A DNA stretch of 64,000 nucleotides from a virus. Lineage: Duplodnaviria > Caudoviricetes. The notes beneath the pieces are model-generated. The model searched no databases. It saw nothing but the letters and a program-made list of their open reading frames with translations, and was not told the DNA's origin. Of the stretch, positions 4,140 through 60,376 are shown piece after piece. Position 1 is the stretch's first letter; each line of letters opens with the position of its first letter. A program made the translations under genes and the position numbers. Location of the stretch: the IMG/VR virus record IMGVR_UViG_3300017914_000750, positions 1 to 64,000 of that record, one strand, 5' to 3'.

Positions 4140-4583
4140 TTAAAAGTCTCCTTCTGCAACTTGAACTACAGTGGTTCCTCTTGCTCTCCACATATCAACA
4201 ACTTTATTTCTGTCGTCAAATACAAGGTCAATTACACCACCAAATTTTTCAAACTTATCTGCAAGTTGTGATTTGAATACTTCATCAGGAGTATAGTCTC
4301 CGTTAGGTCTAAGGAAAACTCCTTTATGACCATCTCCAATCCACTTTTTGATTTGTAATTCAGTAATCTCTCTTTCTGACTCATTCCTCGCTGAAAAGAA
4401 TGCAACATCATCACCTTGAGCAATGAACCTTTTTGCAATGTCACAAACCCATTGAACAGGAGTATCAAACCTAGTTTCTGCTCTGAATGAATCCCAGTCG
4501 TTGTTTCCGTTTACAAAATGTCTTCTATGCTCTACATTTGCAATAGTTCCGTCAACATCAAAAATTACAGTTTTTTTGTTCAT
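4140..4583 (-). CDS. HAD-family phosphatase (PseT 3'-phosphatase-like domain)
   Basis: DVDGT motif I, FSAR, FDDR..VVDMWR...QVAEGDF. Confidence 0.85.
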   Translation of the reverse strand: MNKKTVIFDVDGTIANVEHRRHFVNGNNDWDSFRAETRFDTPVQWVCDIAKRFIAQGDDVAFFSARNESEREITELQIKKWIGDGHKGVFLRPNGDYTPDEVFKSQLADKFEKFGGVIDLVFDDRNKVVDMWRARGTTVVQVAEGDF

Positions 4584-4584
4584 T

Positions 4585-4821
4585 TTAGTGAAAAACCCTC
4601 CAGTTTTTACCACCGTCTACAGAGATATGAGTAATTGCCATTTTACCAATTGGATTCATAAATCCATGAGCTGGTAATTTAGAACACATTAAATCCCAAT
4701 CATTACCGTTACCACTAAGTGCAAGGTCATTCAATACAGACGGTATAGGTATATCAAGGACAGCACCGTCATTAATTACACCGTTATATATTGGGAAACC
4801 TTTAATTCTTACCTTTTTCAT
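4585..4821 (-). CDS. Hypothetical early protein
   Basis: Start MKKVRI lies 6 nt after the -10 box of a strong promoter. Confidence 0.65.
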   Translation of the reverse strand: MKKVRIKGFPIYNGVINDGAVLDIPIPSVLNDLALSGNGNDWDLMCSKLPAHGFMNPIGKMAITHISVDGGKNWRVFH

Positions 4822-7467: not shown

Positions 7468-7925
7468 GATACTTTGTCTATTTGCTCTTGGGTAACTGCA
7501 CCACTTTCCATAACTCTCTTTCTATTATCCAAGTGTTGTTGTTCTACTAAATCTTTATTTTCTCCAGTATACGGAACTGCATGTCCGTCTGCAATCATTT
7601 CTTGATTGATATCTACTTTTACTCCGAATACTGGGTGACCGTCAGCGTGGTGTGCATATAAGGTTCCTAAGATTCTCCCAAACTTTCCTTTGTCATGTGA
7701 TACTAGAGTTACAAATTCTGCAGATTCTAATAAACCTTTTAAATGTTTTTTAGAAGCTTTACCAAATAGTTTTTCTACTTTGTCTCTTGTTCGCGACTCT
7801 GGCGTATCGATTCCTACCATTCTAACTCTTTGTTTTTTGTAGACCATACCGAATCCTAAATCGATATCTACATCTACGGTGTCGCCGTCTACGACTTTTG
7901 ATATACTTACTTTATACTCATACAT
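7464..7925 (-). CDS. SNase/thermonuclease-family protein
   Basis: VVDGDTVD, RVRMVGIDTPE, KFGRILG. Confidence 0.9.
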   Translation of the reverse strand: MYEYKVSISKVVDGDTVDVDIDLGFGMVYKKQRVRMVGIDTPESRTRDKVEKLFGKASKKHLKGLLESAEFVTLVSHDKGKFGRILGTLYAHHADGHPVFGVKVDINQEMIADGHAVPYTGENKDLVEQQHLDNRKRVMESGAVTQEQIDKVS

Positions 7926-8340
7926 GTTGATTGTGTTTCCTATGTGCAGATTTCTTTTCCCAGTCTTCGATAGCTCTTCTAATCGAACCTTCTGCAAGAA
8001 CAGAACAATGTAATTTAATTGGAGGCAAATCTAGTATCGCTGCAATATCTTTATCTTTGATTAATTTTGCTTCTTCTATAGTTTTACCTTTTAACATTTC
8101 TACGAATGTTGTTGATGATGCAATTGCAGAACCACAACCATATGTTTTAAATTTTACATCTATGATTCTTTCGTCTAGGTCTAACTTCAATTGAAGTTTC
8201 ATAACATCGCCACATGCTGGAGCTCCTTCCATTCCTGTTGCAACCATAGGGTCGTTGGGGTCGAATCTTCCAACAGCATGTTTTTCGGGGTTATTTAGAA
8301 CTGACTCAAATCGTTCTACTACTTCTTTACTATATGCCAT
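7918..8340 (-). CDS. iscU: Fe-S cluster scaffold IscU
   Basis: GAPACGDVM, FKTYGCGSAIASS, LPPIKLHCS; all three Cys ligands present. Confidence 0.95.
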   Translation of the reverse strand: MAYSKEVVERFESVLNNPEKHAVGRFDPNDPMVATGMEGAPACGDVMKLQLKLDLDERIIDVKFKTYGCGSAIASSTTFVEMLKGKTIEEAKLIKDKDIAAILDLPPIKLHCSVLAEGSIRRAIEDWEKKSAHRKHNQHV

Positions 8341-10872: not shown

Positions 10873-10902
10873 ATTATACTACAAAGTATACTATTCTGTC
10901 AA
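10873..10902 (-). promoter_or_regulatory. Consensus sigma70 promoter of gp43, leaderless transcript
   Basis: TTGACA-18-TATAAT-6-ATG; no SD sequence. Confidence 0.8.
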
Positions 10903-11867: not shown

Positions 11868-12147
11868 TTTCTTTTTCTCTCTCGATTTGTTCTTGCATAA
11901 GTTCAACAAGAATGTCTCCCATAAGGTTGTTCAATTCACTATTATTTAGGAGTTCGTCCATGTTACCACCTTCGGGTAATCTACGGATTGTTCTCTCAAA
12001 ATTTAAATGATTCTTACCTTCGACAAATTCTACTTTACCGTATTGGTATACTAAATCTTTCCATTCACCGTCAATAATTTCTATTGCAGCGTCCTTTTCA
12101 TGAGGATTCTCTACGACTCTATATGTTTCACCGAACAATTTTGCCAT
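11836..12147 (-). CDS. Conserved T4-like hypothetical protein
   Basis: 103 aa; YQYGKV and MGDILVEL motifs. Confidence 0.7.
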   Translation of the reverse strand: MAKLFGETYRVVENPHEKDAAIEIIDGEWKDLVYQYGKVEFVEGKNHLNFERTIRRLPEGGNMDELLNNSELNNLMGDILVELMQEQIEREKENELRETKRAD

Positions 12148-12664
12148 AAATGTAATCCTCTAATTTCATTGATTGTTGTATATCATAGTTCTCATGAATG
12201 ATTAATCTATCCATGAGATTAAAATTCTTTCTGATATTATCAATCTGAGTTCTTCTACCTTGTAACCAAACTTCTGACTGAGTATCTCCTCTAAGTTTGT
12301 GTCTTTCTTTCTCAGTTTCTAAATCAACGGTAAGTATATAGACTTCAGCTTCATGGTTATCTAACAACCATTCAATGTCTTCATTACGAAAGTATCTATC
12401 TCCTTCTATAATAGTATGTTTATAACGAGGACTTATATCGTCTATAAATGTTCTGAATTGTGGTATAGAACCATGAGATAATTTATCTGTTCCACCAAAG
12501 GTTTCTCCTTCGGGATATCTTCCTACAACTAATATGTTATCATGTAATTGACATTTAAATAAAGGCATAGGTTCAATGTCAACTGGGTCGGGTAAACGAC
12601 TAATGAGATTTCGGGTAAGTGTTGACTTACCCGAACATGGTATTCCCCCAATTAGAAATATCAT
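12128..12664 (-). CDS. P-loop kinase of the type found in phage base-hypermodification loci
   Basis: GGIPCSGKST, GRY...FGGTDKLS, IIEGDR. Confidence 0.75.
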   Translation of the reverse strand: MIFLIGGIPCSGKSTLTRNLISRLPDPVDIEPMPLFKCQLHDNILVVGRYPEGETFGGTDKLSHGSIPQFRTFIDDISPRYKHTIIEGDRYFRNEDIEWLLDNHEAEVYILTVDLETEKERHKLRGDTQSEVWLQGRRTQIDNIRKNFNLMDRLIIHENYDIQQSMKLEDYIYGKIVR

Positions 12665-13656
12665 AATACTAAATCTCTCTCCCTAGGTAAACCACCTTGA
12701 TTTGGGTCGGCAGTTGTAATTTGTGGAAGAAAACCTTTGAACACGACTATGTCATGATACTCAGGCTTTAGATGTTTTTTCATCCAAGCTTTTGCTCTGT
12801 TGAAAGCTTTGAGATAATCTTTTCTTTGTTTCCCAATTTTGTCGTGAATTGGATTCTGTATGAAACCTACGATTTCAATTTTTGCACCATAGTTATCATA
12901 AAGATTTACTATGTCATAGATTTTACTACTAAAGTTACCTTCATATCTCACAAAACCACTTCTATCCCAAGCAGGATTAGAAGTATTTTTAACATAACCT
13001 TTAGTTGGTTGTCCTAATTGTTTTGCTTTTTTGTTTGCTTCGGGTGTTGTATATCCTACAACATTTTCTTCTCTAGTATTACTCTGTCTGAATCTCTTCA
13101 ATACAACTTCAACATCTGTATCTGAAAGAGTTCCATCAGCCATATCTCTGATTTCTGCTCTACAAACATCGTCATCTCTCCAATTGATACAATTTTCATT
13201 TTTCATTTCCACTAAACCTTTTTTGTATGTGTCTAGTGTATTTGGAGTTCCCTGTTTTCTATGGTCTTCTCCAGTATTGAATCGTCTTTTCCATTTGATT
13301 TTGTCTTTTGGAGACTCAAATTGTAAGACTTCGTAAAAGTATCTATTGACACCCATTGATAGTAACGCGGAAAGTCTTCCGAAACCCGAAATGAGTTCGA
13401 GTTGTCCGTCACCTCTCTCTTCAACAACCATAGGTTCTTTAGTGTAATCAACTCCAAATTGTTGAAAGTCTCTAACGATTCCATATTGGTTGTCTTCCAA
13501 AGCAATTTGCCTTGGTTGTTTTAGAACACCATTTTCGTCTGTTGTTACCAATTTAGACAACGGGCCGTCCTGTCTCCCGAGATTTTTTTTGATTCCATTA
13601 CCAGTAATGGGAGGGTAAGCTTTTCTGCTTCTCTCTATATCATAATTTAACTGCAT
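12661..13656 (-). CDS. ParB/Srx-like N-terminal domain protein
   Basis: PMVVEE...ELISGFGRLSAL; GGAG RBS. Confidence 0.6.
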   Translation of the reverse strand: MQLNYDIERSRKAYPPITGNGIKKNLGRQDGPLSKLVTTDENGVLKQPRQIALEDNQYGIVRDFQQFGVDYTKEPMVVEERGDGQLELISGFGRLSALLSMGVNRYFYEVLQFESPKDKIKWKRRFNTGEDHRKQGTPNTLDTYKKGLVEMKNENCINWRDDDVCRAEIRDMADGTLSDTDVEVVLKRFRQSNTREENVVGYTTPEANKKAKQLGQPTKGYVKNTSNPAWDRSGFVRYEGNFSSKIYDIVNLYDNYGAKIEIVGFIQNPIHDKIGKQRKDYLKAFNRAKAWMKKHLKPEYHDIVVFKGFLPQITTADPNQGGLPRERDLVL

Positions 13657-13710
13657 AGTTATACTCCTTGTGCAATTTGTCGTATACCTTCATACCCAGT
13701 ATACAACGGT

Positions 13711-14700
13711 TTATAAAAATTCATCGAGCGACCCATGTTTATCTTTATTATGGGGCCCGATTGGATTCTCAGATTTACCTGCGATACCCATTGTTGCAAC
13801 ATGTTCATCACAATATGCAACACATGATAGTCTCACCCCGTTTCCACTGATAGGTGTAACTCCATGTAATTCGTTTGAATCTGCAATGATAACATCACCA
13901 TCGTCAGCGTCTACTGCAATCCCATATCTAGGGAATGTAAGGTATGCACCTTTGTAATCACCGATTCTGAATACGCACATTGTAGTCAAACCAAATTCTA
14001 AATCCTTTCCGTCTACATGAGCAGACATTTTTGCAGTTCCTTCTGTAGAATATCTGTTTGCAGAAAGAGCTGTTATAGGTGCGCCCCCGATATGATACTT
14101 ACTTTCAATATGGTTATCTGCAAAAGTTCTTTGCATTCTCCATACATCGGGGGCAGCTTTCTTTAATGCACTCTCATTTAATGGTGCAATTCTTTTTAGT
14201 ATTTCCCACTTAGGTTGGTTCTTTACTTTTTCCATCCAACCACTGGCACCAATCATTCCAGTAAATCTTCCTCTTTTGTATCCGATTAAAACTGAATGTA
14301 TTGCATTTGCTTCTGCAATACGATTGAACTTACCATTCTTTTTAAGTGGGTAATATGAATTAGGTGTTCTGAGTTTGTAGTGGACTCCTTCAATCAATCC
14401 TTTCTTTTTCATTTCTTCGTGGTCGATTGGCCCAGCTGCATTTGCTCTCATAGTAGATACATCGTCAATTGAAAACAAAGTATCTTTGATTTCTATTTCA
14501 TTTTTGACATGACCTTTTACTATGGCTGCAAGTAAAGGTTTCTCACCAAGACTTGCATGTGGTTTGTAAATCTTAATTATATCTGCGTCAACTCCTTTTG
14601 AAGTTACGACTTCGTCATAGGAATCTTCGGTAAGAAATTTACCGTTCCATTTGTCGAAGGTTTCTTTAAATCCTAAGTCTTTTGTTGCAGTGTATTCCAT
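13711..14700 (-). CDS. TET/JBP-like 2OG-Fe(II) dioxygenase
   Basis: HVD...LTFPRYGIAVD..DGDVIIAD..ELHGVT...RLSCVAY; overlaps the C5-MTase gene. Confidence 0.8.
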   Translation of the reverse strand: MEYTATKDLGFKETFDKWNGKFLTEDSYDEVVTSKGVDADIIKIYKPHASLGEKPLLAAIVKGHVKNEIEIKDTLFSIDDVSTMRANAAGPIDHEEMKKKGLIEGVHYKLRTPNSYYPLKKNGKFNRIAEANAIHSVLIGYKRGRFTGMIGASGWMEKVKNQPKWEILKRIAPLNESALKKAAPDVWRMQRTFADNHIESKYHIGGAPITALSANRYSTEGTAKMSAHVDGKDLEFGLTTMCVFRIGDYKGAYLTFPRYGIAVDADDGDVIIADSNELHGVTPISGNGVRLSCVAYCDEHVATMGIAGKSENPIGPHNKDKHGSLDEFL

Positions 14701-15932
14701 GGTTCTAAAATCTGTTTTTTAATTTCCTCTACAAGATAGTATAAACATAATGGTGCCACCATTAATCCTATTCTTGCACCCTTATCATTATAGTCACCAG
14801 TCATTTTGTAATCGTTAGGAAGAGTCATAAGTCTCACCATTTCTTTAGGAGTATATATTCTCTTCCCACTATAATGAAAATGATTACCACCCATGAACTT
14901 AGGTTGACACCCTTGTTCTGTTAGGGAATGAGCTGGTAAATGACTTGGAACAATTCTTGACATATAATAAGAATGTTTTTCATTCTCGGGTGGGATATTA
15001 CCTAATCTTATATTCTCTTGATACCAAGGTTTTACTATGTGGTCTCCAACAGAAATGTAAGATAGATTATCTCCGTTCACTCCGTCAACACCTTTACATG
15101 GTGTGCAATGTTCTAGTTCGGGGTCGGGGTGTTTTTCAAATCCATGAACCCAATGACCTTTTGAACTATCAATCATTGCTTGTTCTAAGTATTTTGCGTC
15201 TTCTATATTTTCGGGGTCTGTTTGCAAATCGTCAATTGCTTCCCCGATACTTGTTCTTTCATCACTTGGTTGTGGAAATAATCCACTCAAACACATAAAA
15301 GGCATTCCAATTGCATCTAAAACATCGTCTCTAACACCAACCATGAATACTCTTTCTCTCTTTTGAGGAACTCCATGTTCATGTCCTTTCATGATTTTCC
15401 ATGTTACTGAGTAACCAAGTGCTTCAAAATCTCTTACCATTTTGTTTAGGTGGTCTCTTGCATAATCCATTGATAGACCTTTTACATTCTCACATACAAT
15501 AACCTTAGGCATAAGGTCACCAGTGATTCTAATTTGTTCCCATGTTAGGTCTTCAATGTTTTGTTGTTTCATTCCATATGCAATCTTCTCTTGTTCCCAA
15601 CCTTCTCTTTTAGTTCCAGCCATAGAGAATGGTGGACAAGGTGGAGAACCGTCTAAGATATCTAACTCAAACTTTTTAAGTCCAGTAAGTTCCATGATAT
15701 CTTTACCTGTAACTTGTTTGATATCTTTACACTGGTGAACAGTGTTAGGAAAGTTCTCTAGATATGTGTCAACATGAATCTGTTGGAACTCATTCATGTA
15801 TCTGACATCACCACCTGCGAGTTTATATGCACACGATGAACCACCACCGCCTGCAAAAAATGTGATATAGTTGAATTCTTTTTTGGAACTGCGTTCCTGT
15901 AGGTCTTTTAAATTGTATTGAAAGTAAGTCAT
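14673..15932 (-). CDS. DNA (cytosine-5) methyltransferase
   Basis: FAGGGG (I), GSPPC (IV), ENV (VI), PQKRERVF (VIII), RLMTLP (IX), IGLMV (X). Confidence 0.93.
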   Translation of the reverse strand: MTYFQYNLKDLQERSSKKEFNYITFFAGGGGSSCAYKLAGGDVRYMNEFQQIHVDTYLENFPNTVHQCKDIKQVTGKDIMELTGLKKFELDILDGSPPCPPFSMAGTKREGWEQEKIAYGMKQQNIEDLTWEQIRITGDLMPKVIVCENVKGLSMDYARDHLNKMVRDFEALGYSVTWKIMKGHEHGVPQKRERVFMVGVRDDVLDAIGMPFMCLSGLFPQPSDERTSIGEAIDDLQTDPENIEDAKYLEQAMIDSSKGHWVHGFEKHPDPELEHCTPCKGVDGVNGDNLSYISVGDHIVKPWYQENIRLGNIPPENEKHSYYMSRIVPSHLPAHSLTEQGCQPKFMGGNHFHYSGKRIYTPKEMVRLMTLPNDYKMTGDYNDKGARIGLMVAPLCLYYLVEEIKKQILEPWNTLQQKT

Positions 15933-15968
15933 GTCTCTATTATACACTGACAATAGAGACATTGACTA
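15931..15968 (-). promoter_or_regulatory. Leaderless promoter of the MTase inside an 11-bp perfect inverted repeat
   Basis: TAGTCA-18-TATAAT-6-ATG; ATGTCTCTATT (15931-41) / AATAGAGACAT (15952-62). Confidence 0.65.
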
Positions 15969-15984: not shown

Positions 15985-16506
15985 TTATGCAACGAAGTCA
16001 TCTCCTTCGTTCCACTCACAACCTGTAAGACCACCAGCTTGTAATCCTTTTAAAGTTCTTAGAACTTCATTGTGATTTCTACCAGTGTCTAATGCATTGA
16101 TTGATGCATGTTGGATAGTTCTATCTTTATCAAAGATAAATGTTGCACGATAACAAACACCTTCTTCTTTATTGACGATACCTAATGTATGTGATAATCC
16201 TAGTCCACAATCAGCTGCAAGTGTATGTCTGATATTACCTATCAACTCATTATCTTGTTTCCATGCTAATTTACAGAACTCATTATCTCCACTGATTCCA
16301 ATGACATTTGCATGGTCGACTAAAGTATCGAAACCAGCAATCTCTGTTGGACATATAAAGGTAAAGTCTTTTGGATAAAAGTAAACTACTGACCAGTCAT
16401 GGTTAGATGGTGGATATTTTTCATCTACTTCAACTCTCACAAATTCATTATTTTCATTGATTCCCTGTAGTGAGAAGGCAGGGAATTTGTCACCGACTGA
16501 TAACAT
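15985..16506 (-). CDS. ahpC: 2-Cys peroxiredoxin (AhpC/TSA)
   Basis: FYPKDFTFICPTE, GRN..EVLR, C-terminal GCEW. Confidence 0.93.
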   Translation of the reverse strand: MLSVGDKFPAFSLQGINENNEFVRVEVDEKYPPSNHDWSVVYFYPKDFTFICPTEIAGFDTLVDHANVIGISGDNEFCKLAWKQDNELIGNIRHTLAADCGLGLSHTLGIVNKEEGVCYRATFIFDKDRTIQHASINALDTGRNHNEVLRTLKGLQAGGLTGCEWNEGDDFVA

Positions 16507-16524: not shown

Positions 16525-16575
16525 AGATTAGACCCTCAGTATAACACCAAAGGTCTAATCTGTAAATAGGGTTTT
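16525..16575 (-). promoter_or_regulatory. Promoter of ahpC with a 10-bp inverted repeat
   Basis: AAAACCCTA-TTTACA-17-TATACT; AGATTAGACC/GGTCTAATCT flank the -10 box. Confidence 0.65.
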
Positions 16576-16984
16576 AAGAAATCTTGATAGTGACTGGTTT
16601 ATCCTCTTCGGGAATAACCTTCTCTAACTTAACAGACAAGATACCGTCTTTTAACTCTGCACCTTCGATTATAACATCGTCTGCAAGAGTCCAACTTCTC
16701 TTGAATGCTCTAGAAGCTAATCCTTTATGGACAAAGTCCTTAGAATCTTCTTCTGTTTTACCCTCAATGATAAGTAGATTTTTCTCTTTAGTAATAGAGA
16801 TATCTTTCTTACCAAAACCAGCAACTGCAAGTTCAACGGTGAAATGTTCATCGTCTTCCTTTACAACATTGTAAGGTGGGTAGTTAGTATTAGTGTGGGA
16901 TTGAAGTCTCTCCAAGTCTTCGAAGTATCTATCAAATCCAATTGCGAACGGTCTGAATTGACCAAATATATCTAAATGCGTCAT
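16574..16984 (-). CDS. hsp20: Small heat shock protein Hsp20 (IbpA-like)
   Basis: IGFD, NYPPYN, ELAVAGF, HKGLASRAF, DGIL, IPEE. Confidence 0.96.
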   Translation of the reverse strand: MTHLDIFGQFRPFAIGFDRYFEDLERLQSHTNTNYPPYNVVKEDDEHFTVELAVAGFGKKDISITKEKNLLIIEGKTEEDSKDFVHKGLASRAFKRSWTLADDVIIEGAELKDGILSVKLEKVIPEEDKPVTIKIS

Positions 16985-32450: not shown

Positions 32451-33251
32451 TTACTTTTTAGTAATTTTTAAGAGGTGTTGTCTCCATTCGTGTTTACTTC
32501 TATGCGTTGCATGATAATTATTACGAATGACATCATAGGTGGGAGTTATCAATTCTTTTTTGACTGAGTATTCGTTGTGGTCTAAATTTTCTATTGGTCG
32601 TTGTGTTGCAGATTTGTTTATATCGTTGGTGAACCAAAATGATAATGTATGTCTTGAACACCTTCTCACTGGAAACACTCCATGTTGGTGATAGATACCT
32701 TGAAATAATAATGCATCTCCTGTTACCCTTTCTCTAAACATAGGATTACCAGCAGATTGCCAACCCATAGGATAATAATCAGTTGGTGGGAAATATGTTT
32801 CTCCACCCCCGTGGTCGTCATTTAGGTATACTATACAAGTCCATTCTCTAGAAGAACCTCTCAATCCTTTTTCAATCTTAACATCGTAATCGGGGTCTTC
32901 GTCTTTTTCTGTATCTGAATAAGTATCGAGGTGTGGTGTTTGAACTCCACCAACAGGCCACTCGTTGATTGCAGACATTTCAGTATAATATACTGTATCT
33001 GTTGCTTTATAAATTTCGGATATGCAATGATTTTCTACTTTTTGAAATAATTTACGAATACTTTCATTTAGGATATTCATTCTACGAATACCCCAGTAGT
33101 CTGACCCGTCTCCTAATCTACGCAGATGCTTGTGACTTTGGTGCCACCGAATCAGTGTCTTGCACTCCTCCTTCGTCAGAACTGGAATCAGTTTGTGATT
33201 CCACACTTTGTTGTTCTTGGAGGTATCTAGCAATTGCCATTCTTCTTTCAT
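32451..33251 (-). CDS. 2OG-Fe(II) oxygenase (prolyl-hydroxylase-like)
   Basis: HLD, YLNDD..GGET.F, HGV, R..LSFW. Confidence 0.85.
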   Translation of the reverse strand: MKEEWQLLDTSKNNKVWNHKLIPVLTKEECKTLIRWHQSHKHLRRLGDGSDYWGIRRMNILNESIRKLFQKVENHCISEIYKATDTVYYTEMSAINEWPVGGVQTPHLDTYSDTEKDEDPDYDVKIEKGLRGSSREWTCIVYLNDDHGGGETYFPPTDYYPMGWQSAGNPMFRERVTGDALLFQGIYHQHGVFPVRRCSRHTLSFWFTNDINKSATQRPIENLDHNEYSVKKELITPTYDVIRNNYHATHRSKHEWRQHLLKITKK

Positions 33252-40165: not shown

Positions 40166-41570
40166 TTAAATCAAATTGTAAAATTTCGTAAGGAAATTTC
40201 TCCTCGTTGTAAATATTTATACGGTCTTTAAGGTGACCAAGTGTATAATTATCACATTGTAGGTCGTCTGCTATATCAAACAAACGCATTGATTCTTTAC
40301 CTTCTACCTTTCTTAAACCTCTTCCTATCGATTGTAGGTTTCTGATTCTTGATTTACTAGGACTTGCAAATACGATATTATCTATTCTTTTTATATTAAC
40401 ACCAGTAGAGAATGTTCCATAAGATGCAAGTATGGTATCGTTCTCTGCCTTCTCTACTATCTCTCTAACAGCTTCTCTGTCTTCCGTGTCTGTTCCACCA
40501 TATACATAGTGTAAGTTTTCACCCAGTCTCTTAAACATTTTCTCATGTAGAAGAACTCCATGTTTTTCGACATATTGGAATAATACGAGTGTATTTCCCG
40601 ATAAACTATACACAAGATTACAGATAAATTCGTTTCTTGCCTCATTAGAAACAAGGTAATCCATTTCTTCTTGGTATGTTAATTTCTTCTGTTTAGTATG
40701 ACGAAGTATGACACATTGTATATCTAATTTTGCAATAGTTCCTTCGTCCATGAGTTGGTATGACGATATTACTTTCTTTACAGGCCCGAATAGACCTTCT
40801 AATTGTAATCTATGACACTCTGACCCGTCTAATGTTCCTGTAGTTCCTATACGAACTGCAGTCTTTCTCATTTTCTCTAGTATACCTTTTAACACATTTG
40901 CTTTAAATAAATGTGCTTCGTCTCCTACTACTACTTCGAAACTTTCCAAGACTTCTTTAGGAGCCTTACTAAATGACTGCCATGTAGTGATTGTGATGTC
41001 CGAATCAAATACAGGCTGACCCGAATAAATCTTACAAATCTTTTCATCATATCCATACTCCTCAAAGTCTTTTGCCATTTGCTCTACCAATGAAGTAGTA
41101 GGGACAATGATAACAGTTTTCTTATTATAATACCTTGTAAGCATATATATAATCAACGACTTTCCACTTGCAGTAGGTGAAAGTAATAGTTGTCTACCAT
41201 ATTGAACTGCAGTTCTGAATGCGTCTAATTGGTAATCTCTTGGTTCAAAAGGAAGTCCTAAATGTTTAATAAAGTCCTCATCGGCTTGTCTTGTTTTTTC
41301 ACCGAGGATATCCCCTATACCTTTTATTTCATACCCTCTCTCCCTACAGAACTCGTCTACATAAGGAAGGAGACCGATATAAATCTTATTTGTTTTTATG
41401 CTGAAGAGTCTGACCTTCCCGTCCCAATACCTATTCTTTACGGAAGGCATAAACTTTGCATTTGGAACGGTGAACGAGAAGAAGTCGAAGAGGTCTCTAG
41501 CTAGACCGTCATCACATTCTACTTTCATGAAGACTTCGTCAATCTTCTTTAGGTTTATTTCAGAGGCCAT
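40152..41570 (-). CDS. uvsW: SF2 helicase UvsW
   Basis: WDGK, PTASGKS, DEAH, QSIGRGLR. Confidence 0.96.
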   Translation of the reverse strand: MASEINLKKIDEVFMKVECDDGLARDLFDFFSFTVPNAKFMPSVKNRYWDGKVRLFSIKTNKIYIGLLPYVDEFCRERGYEIKGIGDILGEKTRQADEDFIKHLGLPFEPRDYQLDAFRTAVQYGRQLLLSPTASGKSLIIYMLTRYYNKKTVIIVPTTSLVEQMAKDFEEYGYDEKICKIYSGQPVFDSDITITTWQSFSKAPKEVLESFEVVVGDEAHLFKANVLKGILEKMRKTAVRIGTTGTLDGSECHRLQLEGLFGPVKKVISSYQLMDEGTIAKLDIQCVILRHTKQKKLTYQEEMDYLVSNEARNEFICNLVYSLSGNTLVLFQYVEKHGVLLHEKMFKRLGENLHYVYGGTDTEDREAVREIVEKAENDTILASYGTFSTGVNIKRIDNIVFASPSKSRIRNLQSIGRGLRKVEGKESMRLFDIADDLQCDNYTLGHLKDRINIYNEEKFPYEILQFDLNDNT

Positions 41571-42247
41571 CCTGTATTCCATACTACCAAGGATTTTCTG
41601 ACTCCTCTTGTTACGGGTGTAACTTGGTGGTGTAACCATGAAGGGAAAACTAATAGTGAACCTAATTCCTTTCCACTAAATGGTGCAGTTTGAACTAACT
41701 TATCATAGGGTAAATTCTTTTGATTGAACTTCAAAGTATCGAATACTTCTGTTGATTCAATCCATTGAAAATGTCCACCTTCATAATCTTCGGGTGGAGA
41801 TAGTTGTATAGAAGCTGATAACTTTCTAGTCATACCACTTGGATATAAATCTGCACTAGAATCTGTATGCCATGTGTAGAAGTCTCCAGTAGGTAATTCG
41901 GGTTGGTGTTCATATATGGTATACTGCCATGTTTCCATAAACTCTAATTCATAATTCCAACCAGCTTGTTGGTTTGCAGACATCATACCGTCTTGAATTT
42001 TTTGTTTTAATTTTGGGTCAAATCTAGGGTCTGAATGGTCTAACCAACGATTGGTTGATTGTCTAATACTATTATCAATTGCACCACCATCGTCTCCACT
42101 TCTTGCTCTTTCACCGTCTGCGTCAAAATCATTATTACCAATTTTTGCTGTAATGATTTCTAAATTTTGTGCATATCCATGTATATAATCTACTTCTTGA
42201 GGTGTCAAGAAATTAGGAATTACATAACAATAAGTTTTATATAACAT
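41555..42247 (-). CDS. 2OG-Fe(II) oxygenase (PKHD/PiuC-like)
   Basis: WHTD, RKLS, YEGG, FPS...HQVTPV..G.RKSLV.W. Confidence 0.88.
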   Translation of the reverse strand: MLYKTYCYVIPNFLTPQEVDYIHGYAQNLEIITAKIGNNDFDADGERARSGDDGGAIDNSIRQSTNRWLDHSDPRFDPKLKQKIQDGMMSANQQAGWNYELEFMETWQYTIYEHQPELPTGDFYTWHTDSSADLYPSGMTRKLSASIQLSPPEDYEGGHFQWIESTEVFDTLKFNQKNLPYDKLVQTAPFSGKELGSLLVFPSWLHHQVTPVTRGVRKSLVVWNTGWPLK

Positions 42248-42690
42248 TAAGAACCCGCCATAAACTTTCTCCAATCAATTGTGTTCTTAATTGTTTGGTG
42301 TCTCCAAGTGATATTAGTCATACACTCTTTGAGAAAGTTAATCTTTATATTTGCATACTCTAAGTTTGCATTTAGTTTCTGTAAATCTGTATCTGCATTG
42401 AAGAATACTTGCATATCATTCTTCATAATTTTAAGACCGTCAAAGGGGTCGTCATTCCACCCTAGTTCTTTGATTCTTGCTTCGTCCATTTTACCATTGA
42501 ACCATAACCATTTATCTTTCAATAATGTATTATATTGAAACTGTATATTCTTTTGTTGGATAATAGCGTCTGTTAAATACTCTGAGTATTTTGCATGGAG
42601 TTTAGGGATTTCTAGGGAAGATTTATCCAGTTCGATATCGTCTATCTCACAATCGGATTTCCATTCAGCTTTCAATTCGTCAATATTCAT
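42247..42690 (-). CDS. uvsY: Recombination mediator UvsY
   Basis: W..D..ID...LD..SL.IPKLHAKY; IKN.IDW.KF..G. Confidence 0.9.
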   Translation of the reverse strand: MNIDELKAEWKSDCEIDDIELDKSSLEIPKLHAKYSEYLTDAIIQQKNIQFQYNTLLKDKWLWFNGKMDEARIKELGWNDDPFDGLKIMKNDMQVFFNADTDLQKLNANLEYANIKINFLKECMTNITWRHQTIKNTIDWRKFMAGS

Positions 42691-58070: not shown

Positions 58071-58763
58071 CTACTTGACTATGTCGTAATCTTCATTCAA
58101 TGGGAAGTGATTCCAGTCGGGGTCTATATCCATTGCATGGTCATTACTCATGTTTAATTTATGAGAAACAACATTAAAGGATATAGAATATCTATCTTTT
58201 TCTGTTCTATTTGGTTCAACCATATGCATCATAGCACTTGGAAACAATATTAAAGACCCTGTTGTAGGTCTTATTCTATATGTATCCATTTGTCTTACAT
58301 TATTTGGAAAGTCTGATACTACTTTTGGGTCTTTATCGAGTGCAACAAAGTCTCCTTCATCGCCGTCTCCTTTAATATAAAAAGCACCACTATACCAACA
58401 ACCATTATGTAAATGGGGTTTATTCCATGCACCATTATCATTTATATTTGCCCATGAGTTACCTATATCTATTTGAATTTTACCTGTATTGATAGCATGA
58501 AATCCACAAATTTCGTTGTTGTAAATATCTTTTAATACTCTCATTATTTTTGTAAATGCTGGGTGTCTATCACAACCGTCATTTGATTGCCAACCACTAT
58601 ATGCATTTGATATGTTTCTACCAACTGGGTCTTTCTTTCTCATACCGTCTACAGCTTCTCTCAACATATCACAATAATCTTCTGTAATCCTACCACTCTC
58701 AATAAGATTTTCTTCGTATACTATCGTTGGAAATAGTAATCTAATTCCCTTTTTCATCGTCAC
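58071..58763 (-). CDS. Putative 2OG-Fe(II) oxygenase (TIGR02466-like)
   Basis: GWQS, SWANIN, HLH, SG.FY, FPS...HMV.PN, R.SISFN. Confidence 0.85.
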   Translation of the reverse strand: MTMKKGIRLLFPTIVYEENLIESGRITEDYCDMLREAVDGMRKKDPVGRNISNAYSGWQSNDGCDRHPAFTKIMRVLKDIYNNEICGFHAINTGKIQIDIGNSWANINDNGAWNKPHLHNGCWYSGAFYIKGDGDEGDFVALDKDPKVVSDFPNNVRQMDTYRIRPTTGSLILFPSAMMHMVEPNRTEKDRYSISFNVVSHKLNMSNDHAMDIDPDWNHFPLNEDYDIVK

Positions 58764-59676
58764 CGTCCCAATTTAATTCTGTTCTTTTCTTTTGTTCAAC
58801 TTTAAAATCAAACTCCATTTGTTCTTCTTTCTTATGCATAGGACACTCAGGTGGTGGAGTATCTTCTGAGAATAATTTTGCCTTATTAGTTTTTATCTTG
58901 GCATTTCTATAACCACCAATGTTTAATTTTTCTGAAGCTTTCCTCTGTATATATTCACCTGTTGCTGGGTCTATTTTCATATGTCCACCTTCCATTTGCC
59001 ATTTTTGCATTGACCTATCATGTATACCATGTGTTTGATACCATTCATTTGATTCTGCATAGGTATAAGTTGCATGATATTCTTCTCTTTTATATGGGAC
59101 AAATTGACATATAGGTTGTCCAGCTGGTATAATGAAAGAATGATTAACTTTAGGATAAAATATAATTTGTGCATTATCCATATTCATATTAAAGTTATCC
59201 GTATCAATGATACCTTGCCATACTGCAAAATATTGATTTTGAAATAAAAAAGGGTCTATAAAGAATGTGGAATACCCTTCGGGTGTTGTAATGTTCCACC
59301 TTTGACTTATTTTAAATGCGTCTTTGACTGGACAATCTTCACCCATGTATTCAAATATATCTTCAAATTGTGAAGACCCATGTGAAGGTGAACGGATAGG
59401 ACTATTAGGAGAGGTTACGAATATTTCATTTTCTTCGGGAAAATTCCAATCATGACCATTCATAACTGGTATATCTTGAGTTGCAATTATATACCAACCT
59501 AGTTTTAAATAATCGTCCATGGCTGGACATGACCTTAGAGTTTGAACTATTTGACCCCTATGGTGAACTTTTACTTTTGCTTTCTTCCACCATTCGGGGT
59601 GATAGTTCTTTGCAAGAACTGGTCTAAAGTTCTCAAAAGCACTTCCATCGAATGTTCTAAAATCAATTGTAGGCAT
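58741..59676 (-). CDS. Hypothetical protein (DUF6065-like)
   Basis: PEWWK, CPAM.D, W.I.TPEGYS, GIIDTD, G.PICQF.P; family commonly found beside oxygenases. Confidence 0.65.
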   Translation of the reverse strand: MPTIDFRTFDGSAFENFRPVLAKNYHPEWWKKAKVKVHHRGQIVQTLRSCPAMDDYLKLGWYIIATQDIPVMNGHDWNFPEENEIFVTSPNSPIRSPSHGSSQFEDIFEYMGEDCPVKDAFKISQRWNITTPEGYSTFFIDPFLFQNQYFAVWQGIIDTDNFNMNMDNAQIIFYPKVNHSFIIPAGQPICQFVPYKREEYHATYTYAESNEWYQTHGIHDRSMQKWQMEGGHMKIDPATGEYIQRKASEKLNIGGYRNAKIKTNKAKLFSEDTPPPECPMHKKEEQMEFDFKVEQKKRTELNWDGDDEKGN

Positions 59677-60376
59677 ATCTATCCTGTTTATCTAGTAGTC
59701 TAACTTCGTCTCCTCTCAAGACTATAGACCTTCTATCTATGTAGTTTGCATTTGAAGAAGGTGCTTCTGCACCATGTGGTATTCTACCGTCAAACATTAA
59801 TAATCTATTCGGTTTAAATGCAACTCTTCCTATTTCAAACTCATTCATGTGGTCTTCTGTTCCAGTCTCTACATGTTGACTATAAAATCTTAAATCTCCA
59901 CCCCAGTTATCATTCCAAAATGTATTTGTATAATATAGAAAAGATAAATTAAAATCATCATCAAGACTACAATCAGCATGACAGCTTCCATTTTGACCCA
60001 TAGTTTGAGAGTTGGTTCCCATATATTGAAATCGTATCCAATCAAAAGAGAAATCAGTTCTTATTTTCTTATCTATGTAATCCATAAAATATGGATAGTA
60101 AAAGTTTGATTTACATTTTACTTTTTGTCCGTTGTTTGCTCTAAAATATGAAGCACCCCATAATTCATGACTAGGTAATCCACCTCTTTTTCTATTATCT
60201 ACAGTTTGAACACAATTGTTCTTTTGCCAATTTGTTTGATTTCTTAGAAAGGAGTCTGTATGGTGGTGTAATTCAGCTGACAAATAATTGTCAAAGATAT
60301 AAACTTTATTTCCTAGTGGGAGTTCTTCAATATAGAACGGTGAATCACATTCTATTACTTCAATAGAATTAACCAT
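59663..60376 (-). CDS. 2OG-Fe(II) oxygenase
   Basis: HAD, LYY...W...WGG, PNRL..FDG.IPH, R.SIV. Confidence 0.85.
   Translation of the reverse strand: MVNSIEVIECDSPFYIEELPLGNKVYIFDNYLSAELHHHTDSFLRNQTNWQKNNCVQTVDNRKRGGLPSHELWGASYFRANNGQKVKCKSNFYYPYFMDYIDKKIRTDFSFDWIRFQYMGTNSQTMGQNGSCHADCSLDDDFNLSFLYYTNTFWNDNWGGDLRFYSQHVETGTEDHMNEFEIGRVAFKPNRLLMFDGRIPHGAEAPSSNANYIDRRSIVLRGDEVRLLDKQDRYAYN

Follow-up and report, generated by a model that had tools for sequence, protein, structure and literature searches.

The first 64 kb of a 93.7-kb viral contig (IMG/VR record IMGVR_UViG_3300017914_000750, estimated completeness about 52%) contain four consecutive genes for a DNA cytosine-C5 methyltransferase (MT), a TET-like dioxygenase (TET), a protein of predicted ParB/Srx fold (ORF3) and a small P-loop kinase. 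All four lie on the minus strand, as do almost all genes of this 64,000-nt stretch, which we call the window (Table 1). MT and TET overlap by 28 nt, and ORF3 and the kinase by 4 nt. These genes and overlaps had been recognised in a sequence-only reading of the window, which saw in them a candidate new cytosine hypermodification running through 5-methylcytosine (5mC) and 5-hydroxymethylcytosine (5hmC) to a phosphorylated base. Our analysis upholds the gene assignments; the idea itself is not new, having been proposed by Burke et al. (2021, PMC8256090).

Table 1. Position of the cassette genes, the intergenic spacer and the neighbouring genes in the window.
Feature	Coordinates	Strand	Evidence and remarks
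DNA cytosine-C5 methyltransferase (MT)	14673..15962, likely true start ATG 15932	-	PF00145 E 4e-49; TIGR00675 141 bits
TET/JBP-family Fe(II)/2-oxoglutarate (2OG) 5-methylpyrimidine dioxygenase (5mYOX)	13711..14700	-	PF12851 Tet_JBP 47.4 bits, cutoff 34.9
Spacer TET-ORF3, 54 nt	13657..13710	-	AAGGAG Shine-Dalgarno/ribosome-binding site; short inverted repeat with GTATAC
ORF3, predicted ParB/Srx fold, 331 aa	12661..13656	-	AF2/Foldseek/VIA; optional gene in variable slot
P-loop kinase, 178 aa, Ploopntkinase3 type, candidate 5hmC-DNA kinase	12128..12664	-	Walker A GIPCSGKS; start overlaps ORF3 stop (ATGA)
AhpC/TSA-type peroxiredoxin (redoxin)	15985..16506	-	PF00578 E 3e-22; conserved upstream context
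Hsp20 small heat-shock protein	16574..16984	-	PF00011 E 1e-17, phrog_432; conserved upstream context of the module
orf103, acidic, 103 aa	11836..12147	-	phrog_3998; downstream boundary of the module

The MT shows the FxGxG, SPPC, ENV and QxRxR motifs, with motifs I, IV, VI, VIII, IX and X recognisable. Because its homologues align from residue 11, the start assumed in the earlier reading, at 15932, is probably the true one. Aligned with the MTs of Methylophilales phage Melnitz and of a related locus (L018), the target-recognition region contains a 21-aa insert. The dioxygenase matches the Tet_JBP hidden Markov model above its cutoff, in agreement with the earlier assignment, and is recovered by a six-frame search as well (PF12851). 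Its iron ligands (H228-V-D230 and H279) and 2OG-binding R290 are all present, and a search of its sequence against the PDB gave chance-level matches only.

Gene for gene, this arrangement is that of the clade I/A pairs of Burke et al., who screened metaviromes for C5-MT/TET pairs and described for this clade a heat-shock protein, a redoxin and a P-loop kinase or glycosyltransferase (GT), with ParB and lysozyme genes nearby (PMC8256090). The window shares with clade I/A the parallel, overlapping MT and TET genes preceded by Hsp20 and by a redoxin of AhpC type, the kinase downstream, ParB and lysozyme in the vicinity, the extra insert in the MT target-recognition region and a marine metavirome origin; our assignment follows from gene architecture and the MT insert, not from a position in the published tree. 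The published account is without a description of the variable slot or the optional ParB-like gene, both of which come from the present analysis. In E. coli, pairs from clades I/A and II/B produce 5mC and subsequently 5hmC at GpC, and MT88/TET88, from a kinase-bearing clade I/A contig, gives 5mC and 5hmC at GpC[C/T/G] in the same host (PMC8256090). Family membership and these published assays on relatives make it well supported that the window MT would produce 5mC, at GpC by analogy with the tested enzymes, and that the TET-like dioxygenase would oxidise it to 5hmC. Burke et al. further proposed that the kinase might phosphorylate the TET-made 5hmC, to be modified further by downstream hypothetical proteins (PMC8256090).

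By sequence comparison the kinase probably falls in the Ploopntkinase3 family (PF18751) and not in PF18748 (HMUDK_HMUD1), the family of the validated 5-hydroxymethyluracil (5hmU) DNA kinases, a placement that is new in this analysis. Its own score against PF18751 (18.7 bits) is below the cutoff of 27, and AAA_18 is below threshold too; PF18751 is carried by many of its homologues at 60-68% identity, and hhalign relates it at 96.9% over 169 columns to a PF18751 member, the kinase from Microbacterium phage Terij. PF18748 gave no match in the protein scan nor, at E 0.1, when all six frames of the contig were searched, whereas M6 gp54 scores 65 bits against it. A profile search with the kinase against PDB sequences returned chance-level matches only. 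The 5-hmU DNA kinases (M6 gp54, ViI gp67/gp243, SP10 gp186, PhiW-14 gp37; Lee et al. 2018, 2021) are, like the window kinase, small P-loop proteins of about 180 aa encoded in DNA-hypermodification clusters, but they belong to PF18748 and act on 5hmU, whereas the window kinase is of the PF18751 type, has 5hmC as its proposed substrate, and no amino-acid:DNA transferase partner was found for it. The analogy with these enzymes drawn in the sequence-only reading holds as a remote relationship (hhalign to M6 gp54 93%, E 3e-7; pairwise BLASTP not significant, E 0.46) and is looser than had been stated, given the missing PF18748 match.

The best evidence obtained here for a 5hmC kinase is positional. 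We surveyed 62 distinct non-truncated TET loci of sibling phages, a biased sample of which part was retrieved with kinase or ORF3 queries. TET is followed by this kinase in 51 of the 62, by GT modules in seven, by no tailoring gene in three and by genes of unknown family in one. The GT modules include a TET-associated GT (TAGT, PF20691), the T4-type DNA alpha-glucosyltransferase (AGT, PF11440), GT8, and an epimerase with a spermine-synthase-like gene. Direct coupling of TET and kinase, with a gap of 0-4 nt, occurs in 18 loci. The kinase therefore stands in the position that 5hmC-DNA glycosyltransferases hold in sibling phages, which supports action on 5hmC in DNA. The kinase family recurs in ParB-5mYOX-kinase cassettes, e.g. 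that of Terij, where the kinase gene comes after ParB-like and Tet_JBP-like genes, the order seen in ParB-dependent T-dioxygenase systems. In another group of siblings (L167-L171, e.g. L167:3764-6321) MT and TET are followed directly by orf103 and lysozyme genes, with neither kinase nor GT, and the final base of these phages may be 5hmC.

Our scans bore out the statement that no GT or amino-acid:DNA transferase is recognisable in the cassette. The earlier reading had left room for a GT or aGPT-Pplase partner in the rest of the genome; in the 93.7-kb contig, which covers about 52% of the phage, Pfam and PHROG scans of the open reading frames (ORFs) without Melnitz homologues found neither a GT nor an aGPT-Pplase/AADT gene. 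Six-frame contig searches for TAGT and for the thymidylate-synthase/hydroxymethylase families were negative.

The four-gene cassette of the sequence-only reading has to be qualified: the ParB-like gene is not a fixed member, since a contig of 98-99% identity and about one third of related loci lack it. On either side of the slot between TET and kinase, the contig in question (L041) matches the window at 97.9% and 98.9% identity. It lacks window positions 12667-13732 (junction L041:1909-1924), a segment whose 5' part is the 54-nt TET-ORF3 spacer, and its TET runs straight into the kinase. Single-nucleotide polymorphisms (SNPs) between window and L041 cluster within 200 nt of the junctions (14/41 and 9/30), a pattern suggestive of recent recombination or co-conversion. 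Since a 99% identical TET stands next to the kinase without ORF3 in L041, an obligate dioxygenase-activator role for ORF3 is unlikely. In a kinase-centred survey of 57 loci the slot held a member of the ORF3 superfamily in 34, was empty in about 20, and in the remainder contained unrelated, Pfam-less proteins. The identity of the superfamily members to ORF3 ranges from 91% down to 22%, making them far more divergent than the flanking genes (24%, for instance, where MT, TET and kinase keep 68-81%). When present, ORF3 is always co-oriented with the kinase and is usually translationally coupled.

Other occupants of the slot were also seen. That of Melnitz is a 427-aa Pfam-less protein (gene 7, L001:6269-7552) with relatives in L050 and L114, and another family of about 495 aa (L107:2294-3787) has no Pfam match and, towards its C-terminus, matches an HNH-endonuclease PHROG weakly. 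Comparison by hhalign of the ORF3 family with the Melnitz slot protein and with the Terij ParB showed no relation to either. In loci with an empty slot (L045-L048 and L051, e.g. L045:6534-7106), the first kinase gene is followed by a second, paralogous one (38-40% identity), an arrangement reminiscent of the pair of 5-hmU kinases in phage ViI.

ORF3 has no family match in Pfam, PHROG or NCBIfam, PF02195 (ParB_N) included, no tblastn match among phages, and its family profiles gave chance-level matches only against PDB sequences. The ParB-like label it had been given is borne out in structure prediction only, where a ParB/Srx fold shows. The AF2 model (pLDDT 87.8) matches PadC, Noc, MxParB/ParB and KorB with a Foldseek probability of 1.00, and VIA places pNOB8 ParB-N first (Z 10.3, 159 residues aligned), followed by Srx (8.8), PadC (8.4) and SerK (8.0); over residues 19-194, ParB/Srx-fold structures are the only ones at that match level. 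The model consists of an N-terminal nucleotide-binding-like part (QPR, GxxR, N127), a helical middle and a C-terminal alpha/beta domain. Judged by motif position and not by residue-level structural alignment, Q47-P48-R49, G91..R94 and N127 correspond to ParB boxes I-III, with G91 at the strand-to-helix junction as in ParB. The C-terminal 134 residues, folded alone, reach a pLDDT of 94.9 and have no convincing structural neighbour (best Z 5.2, Rag GTPase domains); we do not claim a new fold for this domain. In a library of 1.84 billion proteins the family numbers 302 cluster representatives (50% identity), nearly all of 320-420 aa and matching over their full length. Across 74 diverse members R49, G91, R94, N127, G220, R278, G308, F309 and Q312 are invariant or nearly so; ParB_N is detected at E 1e-4 in two of the 74, and in 12% of the members of ORF3's Atlas neighbours.

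The same family travels with a second cytosine chemistry. ORF3-family genes of 40-49% identity lie in loci of the CmoA/CmoX/CmoY type (L010-L017, L021, L023, L026 and L028, e.g. L015:5393-9103). These loci also encode a CmoA-like synthase of carboxy-S-adenosylmethionine (Cx-SAM; TIGR00740, E 2e-35) together with an Asn-synthetase-like ligase, and motif X of their MT homologue carries Arg. Unexplained ParBc genes have been reported from this 5-carboxymethylcytosine system (Yang et al. 2025, PMC12783734). The window MT resembles CmoX-like enzymes in its SPPC motif IV and is about 35% identical to them, but CmoA and the Asn-synthetase-like ligase were not found, TET and kinase follow instead, and its motif X reads RIGLMVAP, with Leu at the position of CmoX Arg350, where the CmoX-like homologues have RIGRMVPP. 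A CmoX-type carboxymethyltransferase was considered for the window MT and rejected on the Leu in place of the Cx-SAM-binding Arg and on the lack of a CmoA-like gene among the scanned ORFs of the contig. This Leu/Arg difference offers a sequence rule for telling methyl- from carboxymethyl-transferring sister enzymes.

ParB176, which activates its T-dioxygenase 5mYOX176 on duplex DNA (O'Toole et al. 2026, PMC13229309), is the nearest functional model for ORF3. Both systems have a ParB-fold protein beside a TET/JBP dioxygenase and a P-loop kinase, and the Arg/Arg/Asn that bind phosphate in ParB appear, by motif position, to be kept in ORF3. They differ in the adjacent C5-MT of the window, in the larger size of ORF3, with its pNOB8 ParB-N-like helical middle and its C-terminal alpha/beta domain, in the dispensability of ORF3 in near-identical genomes, and in sequence, as ORF3 has no similarity to the ParB176-type ParB of Terij. 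On this analogy ORF3 is probably a nucleotide-binding, DNA-associated factor that would aid C5-modifying enzymes on duplex DNA, like ParB176. Because its family is common to two different chemistries, ORF3 is probably not an enzyme specific to phosphomethyl chemistry; rather than a fixed step of the pathway, it is more likely an accessory that is optional and independent of the chemistry.

We consider it fairly probable that the cassette is a post-replicative C5-MT/TET module of the clade I/A kind, with a kinase that likely phosphorylates 5hmC in DNA and with ORF3 as an optional accessory. The sequence from cytosine to 5mC, 5hmC and phosphorylated 5hmC is the most economical reading of the genes. 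In its third step, which we infer, the P-loop kinase would most likely phosphorylate the 5-hydroxymethyl group of 5hmC in DNA, yielding 5-phosphomethylcytosine as end product or as activated intermediate. Several points count against this interpretation. The validated kinases belong to another family, PF18748, and their enzyme rejects 5hmC, the commercial 5-HMUDK being inactive on this base (PMC6457204); for Ploopntkinase3, action on 5hmC is a supposition. The kinase is also found with no MT/TET nearby (L102, L103, L105 and L109; in some Melnitz-like contigs none within several kb), and MT-ORF3-kinase arrangements without TET occur on short fragments (L018-L022), which counts against a strict dependence on a TET product. 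A downstream transferase was not found, though the contig is only about 52% complete. As for ORF3, the Glu of the ParB GERR motif is missing, and binding of nucleotide and DNA is suggested by predicted fold and motifs only.

The kinase might not act on DNA at all and be a small nucleotide or small-molecule kinase linked to the module by chance, the final base then being 5hmC, or 5mC plus 5hmC. We regard this as unlikely. It would agree with the weak Pfam placement in generic nucleotide-kinase folds (AAA_18, AAA_33) and the sub-threshold PF18751 score, with the Melnitz-like contigs that have the kinase and no MT/TET within several kb, with the kinase beside an MT in the absence of TET, and with the siblings L167-L171, in which 5hmC can be the end product. 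Against this are the 5hmC-DNA glycosyltransferases that hold the slot in siblings, the translational coupling to TET in 18 loci, the remote but significant kinship to the DNA-acting M6 gp54, the recurrence of the family in ParB-5mYOX cassettes, and the lack, in our searches, of a dCMP hydroxymethylase or thymidylate-synthase gene that would call for a nucleotide kinase. Highly improbable in our judgement is a ParB-dependent thymine dioxygenase whose 5hmU is phosphorylated as in the thymidine-hypermodification systems of clade C1, with the MT acting independently, even though ParB-like, 5mYOX and P-loop kinase together are the signature of the ParB-dependent subclass (PMC13229309), the Terij cassette has the same kinase family, and some phage 5mYOXs oxidise both T and 5mC. 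The published T-dioxygenase cluster is without an immediately neighbouring C5-MT, whereas in the window MT and TET overlap; the gene order follows clade I/A, in which the pairs assayed yield 5hmC; a TET of 99% identity has no ORF3 next to it; siblings carry the T4-type DNA alpha-glucosyltransferase and TET-associated GTs; and ORF3 lacks sequence similarity to the Terij ParB.

Two further explanations concern ORF3. It could be a tailoring enzyme, either an Srx/SerK-like phosphotransferase leading to a pyrophosphoryl intermediate or a phosphate-displacing transferase, so that the final base would differ between phages with and without it. True phosphotransferases do occur in the ParB/Srx fold, with SerK and Srx (Z 8.0 and 8.8) among the structural matches; conserved residues are found in both domains, including the invariant R278 and the GF-PQ motif of the C-terminal domain; divergence down to 24%, against 68-81% for the neighbours, is expected of a specificity-determining enzyme; and the second kinase paralogue was seen only in loci with an empty slot. 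The presence of the same family, at 40-49% identity, in CmoA/CmoX/CmoY loci without kinase or phosphate chemistry, a C-terminal domain without a recognisable enzyme fold and the lack of the Glu used by ParB CTPases all speak against such an enzyme, which we think distinctly unlikely. That ORF3 is instead a selfish or unrelated mobile gene (homing-type, or anti-defence cargo) at a recombination hot spot, with no role in base modification, seems very unlikely. Its presence or absence does differ between 98-99% identical contigs with precise junctions, SNPs cluster near these junctions as for a recombination or co-conversion tract, and the slot also houses unrelated genes, one with a weak HNH-like match; yet no nuclease motif was recognised in ORF3, its orientation always follows that of the kinase, usually with translational coupling, its association with cytosine-C5 transferases extends across two systems and 302 family clusters, and a partner role of a ParB-like protein has been demonstrated in a related system (PMC13229309).

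For the majority of the contig genes there is a homologue in Methylophilales phage Melnitz (MZ577097), a myovirus of Kyanoviridae type that has been cultured and is a relative of the pelagimyophages. The source is a T4-like, Kyanoviridae-related, Melnitz-like phage with the cassette in its early/replication region, between a curli/CHASE2-cyclase block on one side and DNA polymerase, RecA and helicase genes on the other. Melnitz shares most core genes, and its MT, TET and kinase, 55%, 56% and 60% identical to those of the window, follow one another in this order too; it differs in a DNA polymerase upstream, which is the clade II/B arrangement, and in its unrelated 427-aa slot protein. Three Melnitz genes downstream of the methylase are annotated as hypothetical, and its paper discusses the methylase only. 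Megablast of the cassette against the phage collection returned no match.

In almost every related locus Hsp20 precedes MT, and the redoxin gene is present in a subset of relatives (L045, L047-L049, L051, L097 and L129). Sigma-70-like sites were found upstream of the Hsp20 and of the redoxin gene, and no TATAAATA late promoter was found in the cassette region. A perfect sigma-70 consensus promoter (TTGACA, 18 nt, TATAAT) is located at 10873-10902 (minus strand), just upstream of the DNA polymerase gene. On the other flank of the cassette, orf103 overlaps the lysozyme gene by 74 nt. It was considered as a fourth conserved cassette member and rejected, since it adjoins the lysozyme gene even where the kinase is absent; in kinase-less loci it comes directly after TET or GT modules (L167-L171, L153-L156), and it is probably outside the modification module.

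Elsewhere on the minus strand of the contig, a NifU-like iron-sulfur scaffold protein (7918-8340, PF01592 E 1e-36) adjoins the DNA polymerase gene. A stand-alone HAD phosphatase of the polynucleotide-kinase-phosphatase type (4140-4613, PF25109 E 1e-24) is encoded 8 kb downstream of the cassette, and a tie to a phosphorylated base is conceivable. Further 2OG-Fe(II) oxygenase genes (2OG-FeII_Oxy_3, Oxy_5), unrelated to Tet_JBP, are found at 58071-60376, 32451-33251 and 41555-42274. The tail-fibre region includes a protein of 470 aa that ends in a weak Hint/intein-like domain (G000 63327-64739, equivalent to L036:328-1740).

New in this work are the family placement of the kinase, the exchange of kinase and GT in the same position, the location of ORF3 in a hypervariable slot and the occurrence of its family in CmoA/X/Y loci. 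A search of the accessible literature found no report of phosphomethylcytosine, of a 5hmC kinase or of a test of the kinase proposal of Burke et al. More tentatively, and as a possibility that we hold to be short of probable, Ploopntkinase3 would be the first DNA 5hmC kinase, with abundant marine pelagimyophage-like viruses carrying 5-phosphomethylcytosine at GpC as final base or activated handle, and at the same time the ORF3 family would form a new class within the ParB/Srx fold, that of a portable, nucleotide-dependent loader or activator common to the MT/TET/kinase and CmoA/X/Y systems.

By hypermodifying their DNA, phages weaken restriction and CRISPR defences, and the pathways involved are a source of enzymes for epigenetic sequencing chemistry. 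The MT/TET part of the module has already been characterised in relatives, which leaves the kinase branch as the remaining biochemical step. Practical handles exist in the cultured phage Melnitz, with its MT-TET-kinase core, and in naturally occurring, near-isogenic variants that have or lack the ParB-like gene. As the commercial 5-HMUDK does not act on 5hmC, a kinase specific for 5hmC in DNA would, if true, represent a novel enzyme activity of use as a reagent, and would add a negatively charged cytosine to the natural bases. That one ParB-like family accompanies two cytosine chemistries unrelated to each other suggests a general role as accessory for these proteins.

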